Source of the DNA: an uncultured bacterium
Lineage (GTDB): Bacteria > Hinthialibacterota > Hinthialibacteria > Hinthialibacterales > Hinthialibacteraceae
DNA: 64,000 nucleotides
Direction of reading: 5' to 3'
Assembly: GCA_964517495.1 (NCBI GenBank)
Contig: CAZFER010000019.1
Coordinates: forward strand, 19,835 to 83,834
Part shown: positions 20,721-62,444 of the stretch, in pieces
Position numbering within the stretch: position 1 is the stretch's first letter
Layout: each line of letters opens with the position of its first letter
Program-made: the position numbers and the translations under genes
The notes under the pieces: generated by a model
What the model saw: the letters and a program-made list of their open reading frames with translations, nothing else
What the model was told of the DNA's origin: nothing
Databases searched by the model: none

Positions 20721-20951
20721 CTAAATAATTTAGGATCGTCGCGCATCGACTGCAGCCATCAGCAAAGGCGTTGTGGAAGATAGAAAATAGTTGATTTTTC
20801 GAGGTTAGAAAAGGTCTGAGCCAAGCTTCCCACAAGATATCTACATTTTATATAGATATTGCGAATCAAGGAAGCTCAACAAACAGGGGGAGAATTATAT
20901 TTAAGCTAAACAACTTTTTTTCTTTAAATACGGTGCTAAGTTCTTTTATGT

Positions 20952-21140
20952 CTAAAATCTTATTTTAAGCCCTGCTTGTTTACAAATTTCATTAACTGTT
21001 ATTCGGTCAAAAAGCTTGTAACGTTTCACTGGAAGAATCATTTTCCCATTGGAATAAAATGAATGATTCCCTCCTTCACGCAACAAATAAAAACCATTCT
21101 TTTCCAAATGTTTGACAAGTTCTCGGCGCTTTACAGACAA
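20952..21140 (-). CDS. hicA: type II toxin-antitoxin system HicA family toxin
   Basis: 62 aa with a TTG start. KHLEKNGFYLLREGGNHSFYSNGKM...ICKQAGL matches the HicA mRNA-interferase fold. Confidence 0.7.
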   Translation of the reverse strand: MSVKRRELVKHLEKNGFYLLREGGNHSFYSNGKMILPVKRYKLFDRITVNEICKQAGLKIRF

Positions 21141-21145
21141 GTTTT

Positions 21146-21371
21146 CTAATCCTCAAGTATTACAGGAATTGGTTCATATAACGATCCACCTGGAGGTATT
21201 TCTTTTCCAATATCCCTATAAGCAAGTATCATTTCATGAAGCGCATCTTGCACCCCGGCATTCTTCCAACGAGGAACCTTCCGTTATGACCTCTGGCCAT
21301 TCAACGAGTTGTCCCATGTATCCCCTGGAAATTTTCGTATATTTAGCCGTATACGTGTAAGATCGATCCAT
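21146..21371 (-). pseudogene. hicB: HicB family antitoxin, disrupted by a single-nucleotide frameshift in a C4/G4 run
   Basis: Frame 1 reads MDRSYTYTAKYTKISRGYMGQLVEWPEVITEGSSLEECRG and then stops. Frame 2 continues QDALHEMILAYRDIGKEIPPGGSLYEPIPVILED*. Together they give a ~74 aa HicB-like protein. The shift is at about 21253-21256. The gene ends 5 nt before hicA. Confidence 0.5.
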
Positions 21372-21746
21372 AAGTACACCTTGTATCCTGTCTTTTATCA
21401 CCATAAATCGCCCTTGATTACAAAAGAAAGGAAATATATCTGAATTTTTAGTTTATTTGAAAGACAAGTTATTACACCATATAATATTATTTCCAGAGTA
21501 TAGGAATAAAAGTGGATAACATGATTAAGCAGAAACAATCTAAATTAAGGAAGAGATGTGATCAATGGTTTGATGAAACCAGCAAGGTAGAGGTTTTCTG
21601 GACACATTTGAAGTGATTGCCTTAATCAATAAATCAGAACACTCCCACTAAGGTACACTTCCAACATCACACAAATCCCTATAAATTGAAAGAATCACTA
21701 AATGATAATAGTCTATTAGAATATCTAACAGAAAGAGGAATATAAA

Positions 21747-23816
21747 ATGATTCGATTCTTTATGCTGACAACGTTATTACTATTATCCTCAAATGCATTC
21801 GTCCTCGCACAACCGGTTTATCTGGACCTTACCTCATTCCTTGATATCGATGCAATACTGGAACCCGGCGGAACAGGCTTGGGCGAACCTCTTCACGAGG
21901 ATGTCCAATGGATCGATGCAAACTCGCTTCCCGCCGGCTATCAGGATAATACCGTGTACGAAACTCCGGATGGACGAACCACATTTCAATTTGAACCCTT
22001 TTTTCAGGAATCCTATGACTCTTTTCTCCTCGATGGCCAACTAATCGATGTACCCGACGGGCAATATGACTCACTTGATTTAGCCTTATTATCAGAACCA
22101 GATAGTTTTATTAACCCATTTGACACGATAGAATTCCGCTATAGCGATGGCTCTAGCGGCTTCGCTCGCTTGGGACCCATCTCAGGCGTACTCTCTCCAC
22201 CCGCTGCGTTCGATAATACATTCTTCCGCTATACTGATGACAGCGGCGTCAATACCATTTTTTCGATTGACACCGATTTTGGTGAAGACGATACCTATTA
22301 TCTTTTGCAAGAACAAGGCAATGGCAATGCAGGCGGCAACCGTTTTATTGATGGCACCGGCTATGCCTTGTACCTATTTGATGAACTCCAAGGGGTCGAA
22401 GAAGGCACCCTTGGCGTAACCGTCGGGAATAATTTCGTCATTTCCATCGCCACCGAATATTGGGATCCAAATGCTTCCACCACAGAAGGCTATACCGTCC
22501 TCGCCAATTCAATGGAACTTTATGATGGATTCGAACATCGTTCCCTTGGCAATCTGAAGCAATACACCTTTGATGTCACACCATACCTGCAAGAAAACAC
22601 CGGCGAACTATGGGTACTATTCACAGATGCAACCCCTTCAAATGGCTGGGGGCCCTATTTGCAAAATATCACATTATTTACGGGGGAAACTCGCGTTTTC
22701 GAAAAAACCCTTGACGTATCAGTCGATTCATCCAACGCTGACGTATACGCCATGTTCCAAACCGATGGAAATGAAGAAGAAGCGAACTATCTGTATGATA
22801 ACAGTGCCTCAGGTCCATCCAATCGTGGACATCGTTTTGCTGATGGTAACGGCTCATTAACCTACCAATTCGATCTTCCCGATGATGTGCAAGAAGCAAA
22901 ATTAACCGTCGATATGGCCAATAATTTCGTTGTTTCGCTCTCCGGTCCTTCTGATGTGATCCGTTATGACAGCATGACTGTAGGTACCGCCGATGAAAAT
23001 GACTACCTCATCGATGAGGGAGGAAGCATCCCTGGTAGCGATTTCCGCTTTGCGGATGGAAACAATTACATGGTCTATCAGTTTGATCTCCCCAATGATA
23101 TATCAACCGCTTTAGCCAATATCCACGTCGGTAACCAGTTTGTAATCGAAGTCGCTTCCGGTGAAAATGGCGAGTTCCAGGTCAAAAAGGATTGGGTGGC
23201 CGAATCGGGTGAAGAAACCACCGACAATAGCAATCTTGATTTTTACCTCATCAACATTTCCTCTTATCTCAGCAACAATCCGGAAAACATTGTGCGTATA
23301 CGCCTCTCTGATGGAATCCCCACCAATGGATGGGGACCATACTTAAAGAGCATTGTTATTGTGAATAAAGAAGAATCAGGGGAAAACACGTTTGAAGAAG
23401 TGCTCAATTCCATGGATATGTTTGGCGAAGACATCCATAACGAATCCAACAAAGACTATTACACCATCGATCTATCATCCCAACTGGAAAATAACCCAGG
23501 CAACGAAGTCTTCGTCCAATTTACCGATGCCAGCACCGGCGATGGTTGGGGACCCGGCGTATTTTGGATGGCTGTCTATTCCGGCGAACTCGAAATCCTG
23601 ACTGATCGCAACGTATTCGAAAACCTTAAAACCGTGGAGGGACTACCAGAAAATGGTGGATTAACTCTACTGAATCGCCGCTATGCCCTTGATACAGAGA
23701 AAACCCTATCCGAAATCGCTCTCCCCTCACCTGAATCGGATAATAACGTCATTATATTCGCTGCAACCTTGAACAGCGCTGAAACATCCGTACCCAACTG
23801 GATGATTTATGAATAA
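21747..23816 (+). CDS. secreted internal-repeat protein of unknown function
   Basis: 689 aa with a GAGGAA ribosome-binding site and a signal peptide. It has three repeated modules containing FxDGxGxxYQFDLPxD...NxFVxxxxxG and xxDxxxxNGWGPY. Confidence 0.6.
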   Translation: MIRFFMLTTLLLLSSNAFVLAQPVYLDLTSFLDIDAILEPGGTGLGEPLHEDVQWIDANSLPAGYQDNTVYETPDGRTTFQFEPFFQESYDSFLLDGQLIDVPDGQYDSLDLALLSEPDSFINPFDTIEFRYSDGSSGFARLGPISGVLSPPAAFDNTFFRYTDDSGVNTIFSIDTDFGEDDTYYLLQEQGNGNAGGNRFIDGTGYALYLFDELQGVEEGTLGVTVGNNFVISIATEYWDPNASTTEGYTVLANSMELYDGFEHRSLGNLKQYTFDVTPYLQENTGELWVLFTDATPSNGWGPYLQNITLFTGETRVFEKTLDVSVDSSNADVYAMFQTDGNEEEANYLYDNSASGPSNRGHRFADGNGSLTYQFDLPDDVQEAKLTVDMANNFVVSLSGPSDVIRYDSMTVGTADENDYLIDEGGSIPGSDFRFADGNNYMVYQFDLPNDISTALANIHVGNQFVIEVASGENGEFQVKKDWVAESGEETTDNSNLDFYLINISSYLSNNPENIVRIRLSDGIPTNGWGPYLKSIVIVNKEESGENTFEEVLNSMDMFGEDIHNESNKDYYTIDLSSQLENNPGNEVFVQFTDASTGDGWGPGVFWMAVYSGELEILTDRNVFENLKTVEGLPENGGLTLLNRRYALDTEKTLSEIALPSPESDNNVIIFAATLNSAETSVPNWMIYE

Positions 23817-24363
23817 GAATAAAGCCTTTACGCTTATTGAATTGTTGATTGTCGTCGCCATTATTGGAATCCTGGCCGCCATTGCGGTGCCTAACTTTAT
23901 GAACGCCCAGATTCGAGCCAAAGTAACTCGCGTCGAGGCGGACTTCAAAACGTTAGCCACCGCTTTGGAGGCCTATCATATTACCAATGGCAACTACCCC
24001 GTGGCTCACTTGCTCGATCAGCAAATAGCCTCTGGGACCGCCTTGAGCCGGTTTTCTGCTCTAACCACACCGATCGCATTCATTTCATTTTACCCTTCCG
24101 ATCCTTTTGGAAAAAAGAAGGAGGGACCCAATTTCCATACCGAGACCTACGATTACTATGACTGGACCTCAGCCAAACTCGCCAATAACTACCCCGCTTC
24201 CACGCGGGGTGCCTATTGGCGAATCGCCAGCGCTGGCCCGGATAAAATCCAACGCGTCGGTTTCAGTGTCGATTACGATCCCAGCAACGGAATCCTCAGC
24301 CTGGGCGACATCGTCCGCCTCGGCCCTCAATGGAAACCATTCGACAAGAGCCGATTACAATGA
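23809..24363 (+). CDS. prepilin-type N-terminal cleavage/methylation domain protein (pseudopilin-like, DUF1559-type N-terminus)
   Basis: 184 aa. KAFTLIELLIVVAIIGILAAIAVPNF is a class III signal. It overlaps the upstream gene by 8 nt. Confidence 0.75.
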   Translation: MNKNKAFTLIELLIVVAIIGILAAIAVPNFMNAQIRAKVTRVEADFKTLATALEAYHITNGNYPVAHLLDQQIASGTALSRFSALTTPIAFISFYPSDPFGKKKEGPNFHTETYDYYDWTSAKLANNYPASTRGAYWRIASAGPDKIQRVGFSVDYDPSNGILSLGDIVRLGPQWKPFDKSRLQ

Positions 24364-24385
24364 ACCTTGTATTATATGGATGATA

Positions 24386-24892
24386 TCACCTTTTCCAATT
24401 CGTACGAAAATCTAAAAGATGTCCAAACTGAAAAGCATTGAATGATTGGATTCCAAACTGCGCACATACGTCCGGAATCCTGCGATTATGACGTTGGCTT
24501 CTGGGTTTGGAACTTTCGGTTGTGACAACCGACCGGCTTGTAGGATCAACTAAAGCGTAAGCAATTAAAAACGGATCACGACCAATTGCCTCTAGCTCTA
24601 TATCATTAAGGTCAGGGGCATATCCCTCATTTGTAACCTTTCGAACGAGATATATATCCACCTCTTCTTCGAAGCATAATGCGCTTTGTGTTGTGCTCTG
24701 TTTTGCCCATTCTGCTAGAGTATCTTTTCCCTTTTTCCCTTCCTTTATTTCTTCATAAATCTCAATAGGGATTTTAACCCTGCCCTGCTCTCCTTGATAA
24801 ATGAGCCATGTCCAATACTCGTCAACACGTCCAATTGGATAGTAGTCCCGGTTGGCATCGATTAGAACGTTTGCATCTCGAAGATAAAGCAA
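24386..24892 (-). CDS. DUF4411 family PIN-like nuclease
   Basis: 168 aa with a TTG start 10 nt after the upstream stop. LYLRDANVLIDANRDYYP N-terminus with conserved acidic residues, typical of DUF4411. Confidence 0.6.
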   Translation of the reverse strand: MLYLRDANVLIDANRDYYPIGRVDEYWTWLIYQGEQGRVKIPIEIYEEIKEGKKGKDTLAEWAKQSTTQSALCFEEEVDIYLVRKVTNEGYAPDLNDIELEAIGRDPFLIAYALVDPTSRSVVTTESSKPRSQRHNRRIPDVCAQFGIQSFNAFQFGHLLDFRTNWKR

Positions 24893-24902
24893 TAATAATC
24901 TC

Positions 24903-26111
24903 CTATATTACATGTACAGGTCGAGCAGCTTCAATGACTCCCTGAACATTTTTGGCCTTTACTCCTAGAACAATTCCAGCCTTTGTTGTGCTCAAAGCAC
25001 CACTATACATCATTCGGTCAACGAGATGAACAAGGGCTTCACCAACTTTACGTTTCTGAAGATTATAATAACTCGGTCCCACGTTTTTTTCTTGTTCACG
25101 ACGCTTGGCGCGCTCACAAGCTTTACTATCAAGAAAGTCCTGTCGGAAAGTTTTTCGTAATTTTTCATAATGGTCATAGTCAAAACGCCCTATACGATAA
25201 AGTTTATACGCTACCATGGTGCTGCTCACATTGTGTGTTCTCCCCAAAACACTGATTTGTTCTTTAGCATCTGCAATATCTGTTTGCTTATCTAATTCAA
25301 TATCCTTTAATACCACCTCCGGAAGCAGGAACTCGCTTGCCACGTCATTACAAAATTTTTCAATGCTTTTTACAGCAAATTCACCGCTGACGCCTGAAGC
25401 GCCAAGCCACAAATGAGCCAGTTCATGAATCAAAGTGAAGCACAATGCACCTTTGGAGTCGTTCGCATTGATGGCGATGAAGGGCGCAATATCGTCAGCG
25501 AGAGCAAATCCTCGAAATGCATCAACATTAATTGTCGTGTAATAGTTCCCAAGATTATCAACCAGTATTACGAAAATACCAGCCTTTTCTGCTTGTCCCC
25601 GAAGATAAGAAAAAGCGCCCTCAATTCCTGCTTTGTGGCGGTATTCTTCAAGATCGAAAGACATATGTTTACGAATTGAATGTACGACAGTTTTTACACC
25701 CTCTTTCATTTCACTAGAACCGATAAAAGTCAAAGGCTTGGCTTCATCTTCTTCAATCAACATAGCGCGCACGAGAGACTGACGCGCATAAATTTTTCTA
25801 ATGACAATATCTACAAGAACATTATCGGAATGATCGATGGTTTCCGGGAGTTTACGGTAATCCCTGCCTCTGTCTCCTATTCGTGGCCGATCACTGAGAT
25901 AGAAGGTTAGAAGGGGACGTCGATAGTGTTTCGCCATCTTGACCAACATAGATCGTGTCGGAATTTTTTTTCCTTCTTCTAAATCTTTAAGCCGCTCAAT
26001 TGGAGATACACCGCCCACCTCGTTAATATTTAGTCTTTTTACGGCCTCTTCAGGTGTAATACCTGCTGTTTCACGTGCCCATCGTAGTATGTTTGGATTC
26101 ACCTTTGGCAT
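24903..26111 (-). CDS. XRE-family HTH regulator fused to an ImmA/IrrE family metallo-endopeptidase
   Basis: 402 aa. N-terminal HTH region (ILRWARETAGITPEEAVKRLNI). HEXXH zinc-peptidase motif (FTLIHELAHLWLG) in the C-terminal domain. Confidence 0.8.
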   Translation of the reverse strand: MPKVNPNILRWARETAGITPEEAVKRLNINEVGGVSPIERLKDLEEGKKIPTRSMLVKMAKHYRRPLLTFYLSDRPRIGDRGRDYRKLPETIDHSDNVLVDIVIRKIYARQSLVRAMLIEEDEAKPLTFIGSSEMKEGVKTVVHSIRKHMSFDLEEYRHKAGIEGAFSYLRGQAEKAGIFVILVDNLGNYYTTINVDAFRGFALADDIAPFIAINANDSKGALCFTLIHELAHLWLGASGVSGEFAVKSIEKFCNDVASEFLLPEVVLKDIELDKQTDIADAKEQISVLGRTHNVSSTMVAYKLYRIGRFDYDHYEKLRKTFRQDFLDSKACERAKRREQEKNVGPSYYNLQKRKVGEALVHLVDRMMYSGALSTTKAGIVLGVKAKNVQGVIEAARPVHVI

Positions 26112-26422
26112 GGCTCATTCTCGCTCAACTTCTGAGGATTTAGCAATAGTTTGCAGATATCGCCTTATAGCGACTAAATCAACTTTCACCTCATATTAAT
26201 ATATAATCACATTTTCCTTTTTTATAGAGCGAATTATCATTCATTTTGGCAAAGTTACCCCAGTACCCGACATCCGTTTATACACTAACGGCAAAACAAA
26301 CATTCCCATAATGATTGCCACCTGATATCCAGTGCACTGATATCTTTTCTCTATTCCCATTTTGGATATAGAGAAAAACGATTCACCATTCTATTGTCTT
26401 GAATTCAAACAGGAGGAACATC

Positions 26423-26896
26423 ATGAACAAAAATAACGCATTAATTCTTATCATCGGGGCCATGCTGGTTCTGGTCATTTCCCTGCCACTCGAATGGATG
26501 TCCATCCAAAACGCCAGTGCCAATTTTAGTGGCCCTTTCCAGGAATTGGGGAATAGGATGACTCAAACGTTAGGAAAAGTATCCATGTCCGTTACCGGCT
26601 TGAACGGCCATGTCACCTTTCTTTTCAAAATGCCCATATGGCTGATTGTCGTGATTGGGCTGATAGGCGCATTATTATCCATGCTAAACACTCTAAAAGT
26701 AACCTCCATGCCTCAGCCAGTACCTCTCATTCTTTTAGGTTTTTCCATATTGTATATGATTATCGCCCTCTTGATCGCCATTGGCAGTGGTAATGCATCG
26801 GTTGGAATTGGCGTGTTCGTTGGCCTCTTGGGGAACGGCCTGGCCATTATACATGTCCTCGCAGGTCAGTCCCCTGAACAGGAAAATATACTGTAA
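26423..26896 (+). CDS. hypothetical polytopic membrane protein
   Basis: An AGGAGG ribosome-binding site lies 7 nt before the internal ATG (MNKNNALIL...). The ORF track starts 8 codons earlier at a TTG. Three or four hydrophobic helices. Confidence 0.5.
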   Translation: MNKNNALILIIGAMLVLVISLPLEWMSIQNASANFSGPFQELGNRMTQTLGKVSMSVTGLNGHVTFLFKMPIWLIVVIGLIGALLSMLNTLKVTSMPQPVPLILLGFSILYMIIALLIAIGSGNASVGIGVFVGLLGNGLAIIHVLAGQSPEQENIL

Positions 26897-26957: not shown

Positions 26958-27164
26958 ATGCAAGAAAAGTGGACCTGTCCCAAATGCAAAAACACCGAAT
27001 TTGATGTCGGCCAGTTTCAGGCAACCGGTGGAGGATTTGCAAAATTATTTGATATTCAAAACAAAAAATTCTCTACCGTCACCTGTACGCGATGTTTATA
27101 TACGGAAATTTACCGAACCGATACCAGCAACTTGAGTAACGTCTTCGATTTCTTCACTCAATAG
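26958..27164 (+). CDS. zinc-ribbon domain protein
   Basis: 68 aa after an AGGAGG ribosome-binding site. Two CxxC pairs (CPKC...CTRC). The ORF track's longer 127 aa version is an upstream extension. Confidence 0.55.
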   Translation: MQEKWTCPKCKNTEFDVGQFQATGGGFAKLFDIQNKKFSTVTCTRCLYTEIYRTDTSNLSNVFDFFTQ

Positions 27165-33328: not shown

Positions 33329-33604
33329 ATGGTTGATATAAAAGAAGCCGTAAAATATGGGGTGCATTTTTTGAAAGAAATGTATGAGGATAAAGAAATT
33401 TCCGATATCACATTAGAGGAAATAGAAATGTCCGAAGATTCCAATCACTGGTTGGTAACCATGAGTTTCATCAGACCAAAAGCCACCGAAAATATCCATG
33501 ATGTATTCAGCCCAAAAGAATATGAACGTACCTACAAAATTTTAAAAGTTTCCAGAGATGATGGCTGTGTCATCTCCATGATGGATCGAATGATAAATGT
33601 TTAA
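33329..33604 (+). CDS. small hypothetical protein, candidate antitoxin/partner of the downstream PIN protein
   Basis: 91 aa with a GAGG ribosome-binding site. It overlaps the downstream ATG by 8 nt (ATGTTTAA). Lies in a ~30% GC islet. Confidence 0.4.
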   Translation: MVDIKEAVKYGVHFLKEMYEDKEISDITLEEIEMSEDSNHWLVTMSFIRPKATENIHDVFSPKEYERTYKILKVSRDDGCVISMMDRMINV

Positions 33605-34097
33605 TAACATTCAAATTCAATTTGAACGATATTATAGCAGTGGAATCATCGTTGATACCAATATCCTACTGCTTTATTTCATAGGAGAATACGACATAAA
33701 TTTTATTCCACGTTTCAAAAGAACCATTCAATTCACAATTGAGGATTATGAACTGCTGACATTAATTTTAAGACGTTTTAAAAGGATTCTTACTACCCCC
33801 AACATATTGACTGAAGTTTCAAGCCTTGCAAATTCACTAAAAATGAATATCAAACCACATTTTTTCGATTCGTTTTCAAAAAATATATCTATGTTGGATG
33901 AAACATATCTGGATAGTAAATCATTGTCAAAACAAGATGAATTTATAAAATTTGGATTGACAGATATTGGAATTCATCAATTGGCAAACAAAAAATATCT
34001 TGTTCTTACAGATGATTTCACATTAGCGCAATATCTTAAAAAGCATGATGTTCCCGTCGTGAATTTTAACCACATTAGAACATACGCTTGGAAATGA
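33597..34097 (+). CDS. PIN domain nuclease-like protein
   Basis: 166 aa. GIIVDTNILLLYF N-terminal Asp motif. Central TEV glutamate. C-terminal LVLTDDFTLAQYL acidic motif. AT-rich codon usage. Confidence 0.55.
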   Translation: MFNNIQIQFERYYSSGIIVDTNILLLYFIGEYDINFIPRFKRTIQFTIEDYELLTLILRRFKRILTTPNILTEVSSLANSLKMNIKPHFFDSFSKNISMLDETYLDSKSLSKQDEFIKFGLTDIGIHQLANKKYLVLTDDFTLAQYLKKHDVPVVNFNHIRTYAWK

Positions 34098-59888: not shown

Positions 59889-60295
59889 TCGAAATTATTC
59901 CTTTCGAAAGTCATATTAATCAACAACTTAGAACCAGTAGTATTCACTCTTTGGGAAAGAGAATACAATTCCATCTCATAAAAAGTATAATGTTACAAAT
60001 CCGTACCTCAATAGTTTGAACTTCAATCAATGAAAACCAATTTTTTGTGTTTAAATCAGTTAGGTGATTAAGTAATATGTCGAAAATGTTTCAATTTACG
60101 TCATGTGGTCGATTATGTTCCTTGAAAGATTGGAATTATATCCAAATAAAATTAATAAACTTTTCTTCAACTTTCAACTTGTAATGTTTTGTAATGTATT
60201 CTATAATGAATGCTAAAATATGTTTCAATATATATATTAATAAAATAGGGTCTCGTTGAGGGATATAATTCATCTTGAAGACAGAGGATATTAAG

Positions 60296-60865
60296 ATGCC
60301 AGTTCAAAAACAAACTCAACGAAAACATCTGCAATGTGTGGTTTGTGGCCAGGGATTCATGTCCACCTTTGATGAAAAGTTGGGTGTTTATCCGGTTTAT
60401 CATTCCAAATCCAAGACAGAGTTTTTGTCATGTGAATCACAATTTTTCGAAATGTTGCTCAAATTGTACAAATGTTTACATTCTTCTGAAACCAGCAAAC
60501 AGATGAATGAGCTAATGAATGATGCCGATTGGGGCATTATTCTGCTCAAACGTGAATTCCTCATGTGGTGTTTGACCTGTGGATATTTAACATTGGACAA
60601 TTTGAAGCGAATTATTGTTCCTCCCGCGATTGACGATTTTACCAAAGATTTGCTGAGTACTCATAAGTTAAACGATCCGAACTATATACCTCAAGCGATG
60701 GATTATCTGAAATCGGCTTTTCACCATTTGAAGGATGAATTGCACCCCACCAATGTGAATGAATTTGATAATTTGAACCCCCAAAAAGAACTCGCTCCAG
60801 AAGCCCACAAATCAGTAAGAATGCACACGGTTGACCTGATTGGGATTTCTCAAAGGAACTCATAA
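60296..60865 (+). CDS. hypothetical Cys-containing protein
   Basis: The internal ATG follows a GAGGAT ribosome-binding site (the ORF track starts at 60275). Lies adjacent to a ~30% GC intergenic region at 59890-60290. No family recognised. Confidence 0.45.
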   Translation: MPVQKQTQRKHLQCVVCGQGFMSTFDEKLGVYPVYHSKSKTEFLSCESQFFEMLLKLYKCLHSSETSKQMNELMNDADWGIILLKREFLMWCLTCGYLTLDNLKRIIVPPAIDDFTKDLLSTHKLNDPNYIPQAMDYLKSAFHHLKDELHPTNVNEFDNLNPQKELAPEAHKSVRMHTVDLIGISQRNS

Positions 60866-60935
60866 TATTAAGGATAGGTTCATTCTCATCATTGAAAATA
60901 AACAGATGGGTTTTTATTGTTTATCAAAATGGTCA

Positions 60936-62444
60936 TCATAATTCCCAACCTTTCCGGTATTTGCGGTACATCAACTCATTGGCTTTGGATGAGTTGGTGA
61001 ATTCGCGTTGTTTTGCGTTCCAATACAGCTTTTCATTGACCCGCAAGGCAATATTTCCAAGTGCGATAGTTTGGCTAAAGTCTTTGGCATCATTAAAGTT
61101 AGCGCCGGAGGGTTTACCTCCTTTACACGCTCGAAGCCATTGATCCAGTTCATCGATGGGGCGAGGCAAGTATGGATCAGGTGGATTAAAGGCCTCCATC
61201 TTCTTTTTGGGAATCAATCGCGGATCGCCTCCACTGAAATCAGCCAGGATTTTGCCTTCATCACCGATGAATAAGAGTCCCTCATTGGGCATAGATTCAC
61301 CATCTTCTACCAATTCTTTTGGCATGGGTGGGCGCAAGCCGCCGTCATACCAATAGAGGGAGAGTTCCGGCATATCCTCGCGGGCGGGGAATTCCCAGTG
61401 GATGGTTGATGCGCGGGGATAGGAAATCATGTTATCTTGTTTTTCCCACAAGTGACTGACAATTTCCCAATATTGGCTACGGCTGGCTTCGATTGATTTG
61501 GGTGATCCTAACTTCATGATTTTAAAGATTTGATAGAAGCTATAGTGTCCCATATCACCCAAAGCACCTGCCCCGAAATCATACCAGCCGCGAAAGACGG
61601 CGTGGGTCAATGTGGGATGGTAGGGGCGATGGGGTACGGGTCCCAGCCATAAATCCCAATCCAACCCTTCGGGGATGGGTGGTGTTTCAGACGGATATTG
61701 GGTCATCCCTTGTGGCCAGAAGGGGCGTGATGACCAGTTATGAACTTCACGAACAGGGCCAATGGCTCCATTCCAGATCCATTCGCATATGGTGGCCGTG
61801 CTTTTATTCGAGGCCGCGCAGAAGAGGTGGGTGGCAAGACCGGTTTCTTTGGCTTTATCGGCTGCCAGATGAATTTCGTTAAGCACATTGGAGATCGGTT
61901 TATGGGTGATGGCGTGCTTGCCTTTGTTGATGGCCGCCAGCGCGACAGTTGCGTGGAGGTGATCGGGAGTCATGATATATACAGCATCGATATCCTCTTC
62001 ATTTTCAAGCACTTCACGAAAATCCCGATAGGCCTTGCATCCGCTATATTGGCCAGACGGTTTGTTTTTGGCGTAATAGCCCTCGACAATTTCCTGTCCC
62101 ACTTTGCGGCCACAACGGCATCCTTTGATCCCTTCACCCCATTTGGGTTCACCGAGGAAATCGCGTACTTTATTGCGAATTTCATTGCGGGACCATTCGA
62201 TGTAATCGTTGCTATCCTCATTGGGATCACACACGCAGGCGATGTGTACATCGGGATTGGGCAGCGCTCGCATGAGTTGACGAACGCCTTGGGTTCCGGT
62301 TCCGATATAGGCAATGTTAACTTTATCGTTTGGTGAGACGAGTTTTTCACCTCCTAAAACAGAACGTGGAATGATGCTTAGTGCGGTGATCGGCGCAGAT
62401 GCTTTTAAAAATTGGCGGCGAGTTGGTTTTGAGTATTTTCCCAT
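60936..62444 (-). CDS. Gfo/Idh/MocA family oxidoreductase, Tat signal
   Basis: 502 aa. RRQFLKASAPITALS Tat motif. Rossmann block (VNIAYIGTGTQGVRQLMRAL). Confidence 0.85.
   Translation of the reverse strand: MGKYSKPTRRQFLKASAPITALSIIPRSVLGGEKLVSPNDKVNIAYIGTGTQGVRQLMRALPNPDVHIACVCDPNEDSNDYIEWSRNEIRNKVRDFLGEPKWGEGIKGCRCGRKVGQEIVEGYYAKNKPSGQYSGCKAYRDFREVLENEEDIDAVYIMTPDHLHATVALAAINKGKHAITHKPISNVLNEIHLAADKAKETGLATHLFCAASNKSTATICEWIWNGAIGPVREVHNWSSRPFWPQGMTQYPSETPPIPEGLDWDLWLGPVPHRPYHPTLTHAVFRGWYDFGAGALGDMGHYSFYQIFKIMKLGSPKSIEASRSQYWEIVSHLWEKQDNMISYPRASTIHWEFPAREDMPELSLYWYDGGLRPPMPKELVEDGESMPNEGLLFIGDEGKILADFSGGDPRLIPKKKMEAFNPPDPYLPRPIDELDQWLRACKGGKPSGANFNDAKDFSQTIALGNIALRVNEKLYWNAKQREFTNSSKANELMYRKYRKGWEL

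Follow-up and report, generated by a model that had tools for sequence, protein, structure and literature searches.

A mobile two-gene cassette in an uncultured bacterium is probably a toxin–antitoxin operon of the VapBC52 type

The locus described here raises the question of what a small metallopeptidase–nuclease gene pair does for its host: whether it is a toxin–antitoxin module, a dedicated phage defence system, a transcriptional switch or an ordinary operon of its lineage. Public records give such genes no more than the names 'XRE family transcriptional regulator' and 'DUF4411 family protein'. On the minus strand of the window (the whole stretch of 64,000 nucleotides that was analysed), a 402-aa XRE-HTH::HEXXH-peptidase gene (gene A, 24903-26111) precedes a DUF4411 PIN-like gene of 168 aa (gene B, 24386-24892), with 10 nt between the two. 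This arrangement, which the initial annotation had read from the letters, was confirmed in the sequence, and the DUF4411 and ImmA-type peptidase matches both lie above the Pfam cutoffs. We conclude that the pair is an intact two-gene toxin–antitoxin cassette and an ordinary member of a known family, and that it is in all likelihood a type II operon of the VapBC52 type that is self-contained and moves horizontally. The features discussed below are as follows.

24903..26111, minus strand: gene A, 402-aa VapB52-type antitoxin with an XRE-HTH, a cleavable linker, a Zn-metallopeptidase (IrrE/ImmA/CapP-like) and a four-helix C-terminal domain
25896..26111, minus strand: N-terminal XRE-type HTH domain of gene A (residues 1-72), whose VapB52 counterpart is the toxin-binding domain released by self-cleavage
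25830..25883, minus strand: gene A residues 77-94, predicted disordered linker with the GDRGxD[F/Y]RxLP motif, which is invariant in the family (pLDDT <50)
25854-25859, minus strand: gene A Y85-R86, predicted autoproteolysis site, the aromatic-Arg motif of the linker
25359..25427, minus strand: gene A zinc site, H229-E230-x-x-H233 and E251, invariant residues
24906..25067, minus strand: C-terminal four-helix domain of gene A (residues ~349-402), which carries the conserved 'GALTTTKAGKVLGV' motif
24900..24904, minus strand: gene B Shine-Dalgarno AGGAG, overlapping the gene A stop TAG (24903-24905)
24386..24892, minus strand: gene B, VapC52-type toxin of 168 aa, DUF4411 PIN-like and starting at TTG (Pfam DUF4411, 2.6e-30)
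26112..26398, no strand assigned: divergent intergenic region upstream of gene A, presumed promoter/operator region
24512..26248, no strand assigned: segment replaced in the close relative L097 by ~59 nt of filler; it takes in toxin codons 1-126, the antitoxin gene in full and the antitoxin upstream region

Homology of both partners to VapB52 and VapC52

The precedent is the VapB52/VapC52 complex of Mycobacterium tuberculosis (Rv2515c/Rv2514c; PDB 9vzy and 9vzz; Singh et al., NAR 2026, PMC13273310). VapC52 cleaves tRNA, and the crystal structure shows direct 1:2 antitoxin:toxin binding, with the active site occluded by the antitoxin C-terminal domain (CTD). Single-stranded DNA causes VapB52 to cut itself, at a proposed F-R motif in the linker, freeing the toxin, and the module contributes to copper tolerance and infection (PMC13273310). 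Both proteins of the window pair are homologous to the chains of this complex along their whole length. The pair has the same gene order, a DUF4411 PIN toxin with aligned acidic residues, and an antitoxin of ~400 aa with the same three domains, the same third Glu zinc ligand, a four-helix CTD and an aromatic-Arg motif in the linker between the N-terminal and middle domains. Gene A aligned over its full length with VapB52 (chain 9vzy_A; E=1.7e-17, and 4.8e-27 with the profile), and this homology spans the XRE HTH, the HEXXH Zn-peptidase and the helical CTD. The structural neighbours of gene A were CapP, PrpR, IrrE/PprI-ssDNA, C.Csp231I and BswR, the same set as that reported for VapB52 (PMC13273310).

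The residues expected to matter most in gene A were strongly conserved. HEXXH was present in 120/120 homologues, and H229, E230, H233, E251 and C254 were invariant in a 35-sequence alignment, as were D84 and R86 of the linker. The window copy reads D84-Y85-R86, where VapB52 has F-R; of the 120 homologues, 77 have F as the aromatic residue and 29 have Y. In the AlphaFold2 (AF2) model of gene A, which was confident, the aromatic-Arg motif lies inside a segment with pLDDT <50 (residues 77-94), and we predict from sequence that Y85-R86 is the site of autoproteolysis; CapH is cleaved at F82-R83. The C-terminal domain, modelled as helices over residues 349-396, carries the invariant residues G371, K377, A378, L382, G383 and V384 and, by analogy, corresponds to the CTD with which VapB52 occludes the active site of its toxin.

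For gene B, DUF4411 was the only Pfam match (105.8 bits), and there was no PADLOC match at E<=0.01 and no NCBIfam match. Its AF2 model (pLDDT 92.5) has a PIN fold, and the top Foldseek matches were VapC11, VapC2 and Rv0301 (VapC3). Matches to pentatricopeptide-repeat PDB entries in the single-sequence search were rejected as low-complexity/repeat artefacts, being many sub-threshold stretches, none significant singly. Searched as a single sequence, gene B matched VapC52 at E=0.016; its family profile matched chain 9vzy_D at 1.6e-7, with D6 aligned to D6 of VapC52. D6, E47/E48, D106 and E126 are invariant in the family and D141 is nearly so (at least 90%); all of these align to acidic residues of VapC52 and are the predicted catalytic residues. 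The sequence similarity to VapBC52 is only distant, notably for the toxin, and the substrate specificity and stoichiometry of the window copy may therefore differ from those of its M. tuberculosis homologue.

The clearest difference from VapB52 concerns the cysteine switch, a Cys acting as fourth zinc ligand that auto-inhibits the peptidase, which is absent from gene A and from its whole clade. In VapB52 and CapP, this cysteine keeps the active site shut as long as no ssDNA is bound. In gene A, the loop that leads from HEXXH to E251 has 17 residues (…GASGVSGEF…), none of them cysteine, and is seven residues shorter than that of VapB52; in the profile alignment, VapB52 C229 falls in the 7-residue insertion that gene A lacks. 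Cys was found in 0/117 family loops between HEXXH and the third ligand, and the clade has instead an invariant Ser in a G-V-S-G motif, nine residues past the second His, where VapB52 has its cysteine-switch loop. The switch also varies from one CapP homologue to another and is missing from IrrE, so that membership of the family does not strictly depend on it. Its absence nevertheless means that peptidase control in this clade may differ, being IrrE-like, leakier or responsive to another signal. VapB52 also has a 23-residue predicted-disordered N-terminal extension without a counterpart in gene A; the host of the window pair is an uncultured environmental bacterium.

The Shine-Dalgarno sequence of gene B overlaps the stop codon of gene A, implying translational coupling. 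Across the family, the distance from antitoxin stop to toxin start ranges from -4 to +28 nt, with a mode of 9-11, and TTG is the commonest toxin start codon (34/72 loci). The promoter and operator presumably lie in 26112..26398. A sigma-70 consensus scan of the minus strand of this region gave no match, a search for repeats upstream of gene A returned only short, unconvincing AT-rich palindromes, and a k-mer comparison of control DNA with the 220 nt that precede gene A, made on 74 loci, yielded only generic AT-rich words as enriched.

Linkage, distribution and loss of the pair

The antitoxin gene lay directly upstream of the toxin gene, on the same strand, in 80/80 genome loci, and the divergence of the two partners was correlated (Spearman 0.74, p=7e-14); the pair co-evolves as a unit. 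Each partner has >3,000 homologues, with 3,855 clusters at 50% identity for the toxin. A pattern-limited search of 185,579 species genomes gave 293 matches in >15 phyla, at 53-74% identity. Relatives occur on 27 plasmids, including conjugative ones, and the insertion contexts are unrelated between loci, with no conserved third gene among 136 immediate neighbours (up to 80 genome loci). About 8 of the 80 loci hold truncated or frameshifted copies. Carriage of the gene B family by phages exists but is rare: no match was found in 50,697 GenBank phage records, 8 of 2.9 million IMG/VR contigs matched, several of them at contig ends, and PHROGs holds matching families.

The pair is dispensable as well as horizontally mobile. 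In L097, whose metY is 97% identical, it has been removed by a deletion of 1.7 kb, and only the final 41 codons of the toxin gene remain; the flanks align at 90-93% identity, and window positions 24384-24511 match L097 at 125/128 nt. In relatives at 84-86% metY identity, the pair is absent from the same locus. The L097 deletion is a tidy natural example of the loss of a toxin–antitoxin module, the toxin catalytic core and the antitoxin having gone at once. That the two genes form a conserved housekeeping operon of the host lineage, or of the whole phylum, is refuted by this presence/absence polymorphism and by the patchy distribution across phyla, and we regard that reading as practically untenable.

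Neighbourhood and related systems

The initial annotation had described a protease-controlled toxin/effector module within a small defence islet. The module stands, on the VapBC52 precedent and on an architecture already predicted in 2017; the islet is weakly supported. Of the supposed neighbour hicBA, hicA is separated from the pair by 3.2 kb and two unrelated genes, both of them conserved in a close relative, and the hicB-like ORF is frameshifted. Because the membrane/Zn-ribbon pair, which had been counted as part of the islet, is retained in L097, where the toxin–antitoxin pair is missing, it belongs to the core DNA and not to an islet. Of the neighbours put to PADLOC, which lie between 20952 and 30971, none was recognised as a defence gene; the genes without a PADLOC match were hicA, hicB, a 689-aa protein, a prepilin, the Zn-ribbon protein, a nucleoside hydrolase and the membrane protein. 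None of the window neighbours recurred beside the pair in 94 loci from other genomes. A low-GC 166-aa ORF at 33597-34097 was considered as a second DUF4411/PIN gene and rejected (hhalign probability 0.3%, no Pfam match). Scanning the whole window for Rfam families and tRNAs gave no match.

Among known systems, the pair corresponds exactly to the DUF4411.1 gene downstream of a fused HTH-DUF955 gene (COG2856) that was predicted, purely computationally, as a three-component toxin–antitoxin system (Matelska, Steczkiewicz & Ginalski, NAR 2017, PMC5499597), and there is no substantive difference. RosmerTA (RmrT/RmrA; Millman et al., 2022; Ernits et al., PNAS 2023) resembles it in having an antitoxin composed of an HTH and an ImmA-type zinc peptidase, a domain known to have many toxin partners, PIN-like ones among them; RosmerTA systems pair it with varied toxins and defend against phage. 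Gene A matched 13 PADLOC RmrA models (best 1.5e-12, 45.1 bits), as well as capP and PD-Lambda-2_B, but these RmrA matches score modestly, at 45 bits or below, and mostly cover the peptidase core. Gene B matched no PADLOC RmrT model, and the characterised RmrT toxins are of unknown function or membrane-depolarising, not DUF4411.

The CBASS regulators CapP/CapH, IrrE(PprI)/DdrO of Deinococcus and ImmA/ImmR of ICEBs1 each consist of two separate proteins that control transcription, whereas gene A fuses enzyme and substrate, and the output of the window module would be the release of a toxin. CapP and IrrE carry a C-terminal GAF domain, with which their ssDNA groove is formed; gene A has no GAF domain and has in its place a small helical domain that is predicted to plug the toxin. 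The pair does not consist of separate protease and HTH-repressor genes, with a GAF protease, as in those systems. Canonical VapBC modules share the PIN-fold toxin, as the nearest solved folds of gene B indicate, but gene B has no PF01850 match, and the small RHH, AbrB or Phd antitoxins of about 8-13 kDa are unrelated to gene A, which is ~4 times larger and enzymatic. The pair is accordingly not the PF01850 toxin with a small DNA-binding antitoxin of canonical VapBC; its expected stoichiometry is 1:2, against 2:2 or 4:4.

Proposed mechanism and its alternatives

Considering the homology with VapBC52, we propose a plausible model for the window pair. Gene A would be transcribed first and translationally coupled to gene B, and the antitoxin would neutralise the toxin by direct binding. 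One antitoxin would serve each toxin dimer, with the HTH domain gripping the dimer from outside and the C-terminal helical domain plugging the active site; the HTH domain may also autoregulate the operon. Gene B is a putative metal-dependent PIN-fold endoribonuclease; its most likely targets are the anticodon or variable loops of tRNAs, and its action would arrest growth. The middle domain of gene A is probably an active IrrE/CapP-like zinc peptidase, which ssDNA from DNA damage or phage replication would stimulate. Self-cleavage at Y85-R86 would then detach the N-terminal domain and liberate the toxin.

Two alternatives concern the biological role of such a module. A dedicated, RosmerTA-like abortive-infection system, sensing phage replication intermediates and killing or arresting the cell, is compatible with the toxin–antitoxin mechanism and makes a stronger claim on its role. 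The RmrA, capP and PD-Lambda-2_B matches of gene A point in this direction, as do the defence provided by RosmerTA, the PIN toxins reported with ImmA-type antitoxins, the few loci that adjoin type I R-M, Eco57I-type, AbiEii or integrase genes, and VapC52 itself, which cleaves phage tRNAs and, when overexpressed alone, protected M. smegmatis against phage D29 (PMC13273310). Defence or mobility genes, however, make up only a handful of the 136 immediate neighbours, most of which are housekeeping or miscellaneous; gene B has no PADLOC match, and PADLOC recognised no defence gene near the window pair. The defence label also went beyond that experiment, the sole one on the family, in which co-expression of VapB52 and VapC52 was not protective (PMC13273310). 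We consider a dedicated defence role rather unlikely. An essentially selfish addiction cassette, persisting since loss of the antitoxin alone would be lethal and spreading horizontally without benefit to the host in this genome, seems a little easier to entertain, though still doubtful. It would suit the sporadic distribution over >15 phyla, the conjugative plasmids and unrelated contexts, the decayed copies and the single deletion in L097 that removed antitoxin and toxin core together, but strong purifying selection maintains all of the catalytic and interface motifs across phyla, the invariant peptidase active site is unnecessary for addiction, and the M. tuberculosis homologue aids copper tolerance and infection.

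A third alternative dispenses with neutralisation between proteins. Gene A would be a fused ImmR/ImmA-, CapH/CapP- or DdrO/IrrE-like repressor that derepresses itself after DNA damage, and the DUF4411 protein its regulated effector. The structural neighbours of gene A are exactly such regulator/protease pairs, its XRE HTH is bona fide, and its F/Y-R site matches the cleavage site of CapH. Against this stand the homologous complex, whose crystal structure shows 1:2 binding and an occluded active site, the conservation of the C-terminal domain in the family, and the tight translational coupling with a weak toxin start codon, which is typical of stoichiometric toxin–antitoxin pairs; nor was a conserved operator found upstream of gene A. 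We consider this switch improbable, and the VapBC52-type toxin–antitoxin operon remains our preferred reading.

We know of no demonstration of defence by an intact module of the VapBC52 type. It is conceivable, if unlikely, that in the Cys-free G-V-S-G clade the peptidase is controlled in a way unlike that of VapB52 and CapP (IrrE-like, zinc- or substrate-gated, or with a trigger other than ssDNA) and that the native module gives abortive-infection defence; if true, no DUF4411 system before the native intact module would have been shown to defend as a complete toxin–antitoxin pair. The architecture itself, predicted in 2017 and characterised in 2026 with VapBC52, holds nothing to surprise a specialist. 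The practical value of the finding is in annotation, as a large cross-phylum clade is now tied to the mechanism that experiments established for VapBC52. Furthermore, it may guide experiments on the family towards defence by an intact module and towards a clade in which the aromatic-Arg cleavage motif and the zinc site persist although the cysteine switch is absent.

The gene pair and its identity

The pair lies on the minus strand, and its open reading frames are exactly as the initial annotation had described them, an HTH-peptidase gene followed after a 10-nt gap by a DUF4411 gene in the same orientation:

24903..26111, minus strand: gene A, 402 aa, ATG start, XRE-HTH::HEXXH-peptidase antitoxin gene
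24386..24892, minus strand: gene B, 168 aa, TTG start, DUF4411 PIN-like toxin gene

An AGGAG Shine-Dalgarno sequence is located 7 nt before the TTG of gene B at 24890-24892, overlapping the gene A stop codon, and an in-frame TAA just 5' of this TTG leaves no earlier start possible. Both predicted families were confirmed above their Pfam cutoffs, with gene B matching DUF4411 from end to end (E=2.6e-30, 105.8 bits, cutoff 23.5) and gene A matching Peptidase_M78/IrrE-N (E=2.1e-13, 50.6 bits, cutoff 22); HTH_31 and HTH_3 matches of gene A were below threshold.

In a PDB sequence search, residues 4-397 of gene A aligned to 9vzy chain A (E=1.7e-17), and a 35-sequence family profile of gene A matched the same chain with E=4.8e-27. 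The family profile of gene B matched 9vzy chain D and 9vzz, annotated as 'DUF4411 family protein' (E=1.6e-7). The first entry is the VapB52-VapC52 complex of Mycobacterium tuberculosis and the second its free toxin (Rv2515c/Rv2514c; Singh et al., NAR 2026, PMC13273310). At the level of sequence, we regard the match to 9vzy as the decisive result for identity. VapC52 is a PIN tRNase, and there is one 46-kDa VapB52 per VapC52 dimer, with the HTH N-terminal domain (NTD) on the outer face and a four-helix C-terminal domain (CTD) blocking the toxin active site (PMC13273310). The middle domain (MD) of VapB52 is an IrrE/CapP-like zinc peptidase with the ligands H216, H220 and E245 and a 'cysteine switch', C229; with ssDNA, VapB52 cleaves off its own NTD, and the cut, proposed to fall within a conserved F-R motif where the NTD meets the MD, was proposed to release the toxin (PMC13273310). 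The architecture had already been described computationally (Matelska et al., NAR 2017, PMC5499597), and ImmA-type antitoxins with PIN toxin partners have been reported alongside RosmerTA systems (Ernits et al., 2023). The window pair is a divergent member of this known, recently characterised VapBC52 kind, and its distinguishing traits, a cysteine-free loop, Y-R in place of F-R and the widespread TTG start, are minor variations.

Linkage, spread and loss

Toxin and antitoxin each have >3,000 homologues, which are 50-78% identical and come from widely different phyla, and a full HMM scan gave 3,855 toxin cluster representatives at 50% identity. The antitoxin gene was immediately upstream on the same strand in all 80 of the best genome loci (>15 phyla), with a gap from antitoxin stop to toxin start of -4 to +28 nt (mode 9-11). 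Divergence from the window copy was correlated between the two genes (Spearman 0.74, p=7e-14, n=72). Toxins started with TTG at 34 of 72 loci, ATG at 17 and GTG at 11, and the frequent TTG/GTG starts are consistent with a conserved means of holding toxin translation under antitoxin translation. Neighbouring genes differed from locus to locus: the 136 immediate neighbours fell into 117 Pfam families, each seen at most 5 times, with few restriction-modification, integrase or resolvase genes. Relatives were carried by 27 plasmids, including 12 conjugative ones, and were rare in viral data. Homology, motif conservation, linkage and mobility of the pair are established by this analysis. Truncated or frameshifted antitoxin or toxin genes were observed at several genome loci, L016, L018, L036, L040, L048, L051 and L077, which suggests frequent module decay, with MAG assembly errors as another possible source.

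The close relative L097 has a metY 97% identical to that of the window, flanks of 90-93% nucleotide identity and the same gene order (metY, 689-aa protein, prepilin, membrane protein, Zn-ribbon) with the pair missing. Window 24512-26248 corresponds there to about 59 nt of unrelated sequence, and the last 41 toxin codons are retained (125/128 nt identical). The module was therefore already present in the common ancestor of the two lineages, and only one of them has lost it. One deletion took the antitoxin and the toxin catalytic core together, and such joint removal is the expected safe way to lose a TA system. In relatives at 84-86% metY identity, the arrangement is missing altogether; this absence and the loss in L097 refute the alternative that the pair is a conserved housekeeping operon.

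Neighbouring genes and the question of a defence islet

The pair had been suggested to form a small defence islet with hicBA and a membrane/Zn-ribbon gene pair. The genes concerned are as follows:

20952-21140, minus strand: hicA, 62 aa, TTG start, apparently intact
21234-21404, minus strand: hicB-like ORF, only 56 aa
26399-26896, plus strand: multi-pass membrane protein, 165 aa, divergent from gene A
26958-27164, plus strand: Zn_ribbon_13 (DUF2082) protein, 68 aa, divergent from gene A

HicA is genuine (Pfam 4.9e-11), but hicB, which precedes it, is frameshifted, its expected C-terminal half ('…VQDALHEMILAYRDIGKEIPPGGSLYEPIPVILED') running on in another reading frame, owing either to pseudogene decay or to an assembly error; moreover, two genes, both conserved in L097, separate hicBA from the pair. 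Between metY and the 689-aa gene, the window sequence (20888-21613, GC 0.35) is non-homologous to L097 3880-4334, where a 76-aa PF09720 'Unstab_antitox' gene stands in place of hicBA; this is a second TA slot that varies independently. The membrane and Zn-ribbon genes, the latter most likely starting at the ATG at 26958 and not the TTG at 26781, are conserved in L097, had no PADLOC defence-model match and did not recur beside the TA pair in other genomes' loci. What was taken for an islet is therefore two independently variable TA slots and no coherent island. A defence role of the VapBC52-type family is a hypothesis: the sole condition giving protection against phage was overexpression of the toxin by itself, and co-expression of VapB52 and VapC52 was not protective (PMC13273310).

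Several other features were observed. In the more distant relative L100, the region upstream of metY encodes two PIN/antitoxin pairs. At 21747-24363 (plus strand), two genes with an 8-nt overlap encode a 689-aa secreted protein that matched no Pfam family and a 184-aa prepilin-type (N_methyl/T2SSG) protein; the close relative shares both genes, and related MAG contigs carry many similar prepilin-like genes. At 33329-34097 (plus strand, 31% GC), overlapping 91-aa and 166-aa ORFs have a TA-cassette-like arrangement. By eye, the 166-aa ORF contains PIN-like motifs ('IIVDTNILLLY', 'LVLTDD'); it has no Pfam match at E<=5 and was rejected as a DUF4411 gene, with no match to that profile and an hhalign probability of 0.3%. 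A second low-GC stretch (60001-61000, 35%) contains a 196-aa ORF with a TTG start (60275-60865) and no Pfam match.

Conserved residues and the proposed mechanism

In a 37-sequence alignment of the DUF4411 toxin family, D6, D12, E47, E48, D106, T125 and E126 were invariant and D141 was kept in at least 90% of sequences; gene B has all of them. Its D6 aligns to D6 of VapC52, which had been mutated to abolish the activity of this toxin (PMC13273310), and E47/48, D106, E126 and D141 are likewise aligned. The AF2 model of gene B has a PIN fold (pLDDT 92.5), with VapC11, R. felis VapC2 and Rv0301 as the closest solved structures.

H229-E230-x-x-H233, E251 and C254 are invariant in the antitoxin alignment and present in gene A, and HExxH occurred in 120/120 homologues. 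The AF2 model of gene A (pLDDT 82.4) matches the domain layout of VapB52, with an HTH NTD (1-72), a linker, a peptidase MD (four-stranded peptidase plus a helical part) and a four-helix CTD (349-396). Its sole long low-confidence stretch, residues 77-94, contains the family-invariant motif GDRGxD[F/Y]RxLP, with 77 of 120 homologues having F and 29 having Y at the aromatic position. Y85-R86 of the window copy corresponds to the F-R motif of VapB52 and to F82-R83, where cleavage of CapH by CapP has been mapped. The cysteine switch was the only VapB52 feature tested that gene A lacks: C229 of VapB52 sits in a 7-residue insertion, whereas the window clade is without it and has a 17-residue loop with an invariant G-V-S-G and a cysteine in 0/117 loops. 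The switch is missing from some CapP homologues, and IrrE, without it, is active without ssDNA yet ssDNA-stimulated (CapP preprint, 10.64898/2026.05.16.725639); its lack in gene A therefore falls within known variation.

Considering these results, we consider the pair likely to be a type II TA operon of the VapBC52 type, working by the neutralisation and self-cleavage mechanism proposed for that system. Gene B would be a PIN RNase, probably a tRNase, neutralised stoichiometrically by the three-domain antitoxin; once triggered, probably by ssDNA, the zinc peptidase of gene A would cut its own chain at Y85-R86 and detach the toxin-binding NTD. From the VapBC52 homologue we infer the toxicity, stoichiometry, trigger, cleavage site and substrate. 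The ssDNA step by itself could about equally hold or fail, because gene A has neither a cysteine switch nor a GAF domain, and the missing switch predicts looser or different peptidase control in the window pair.
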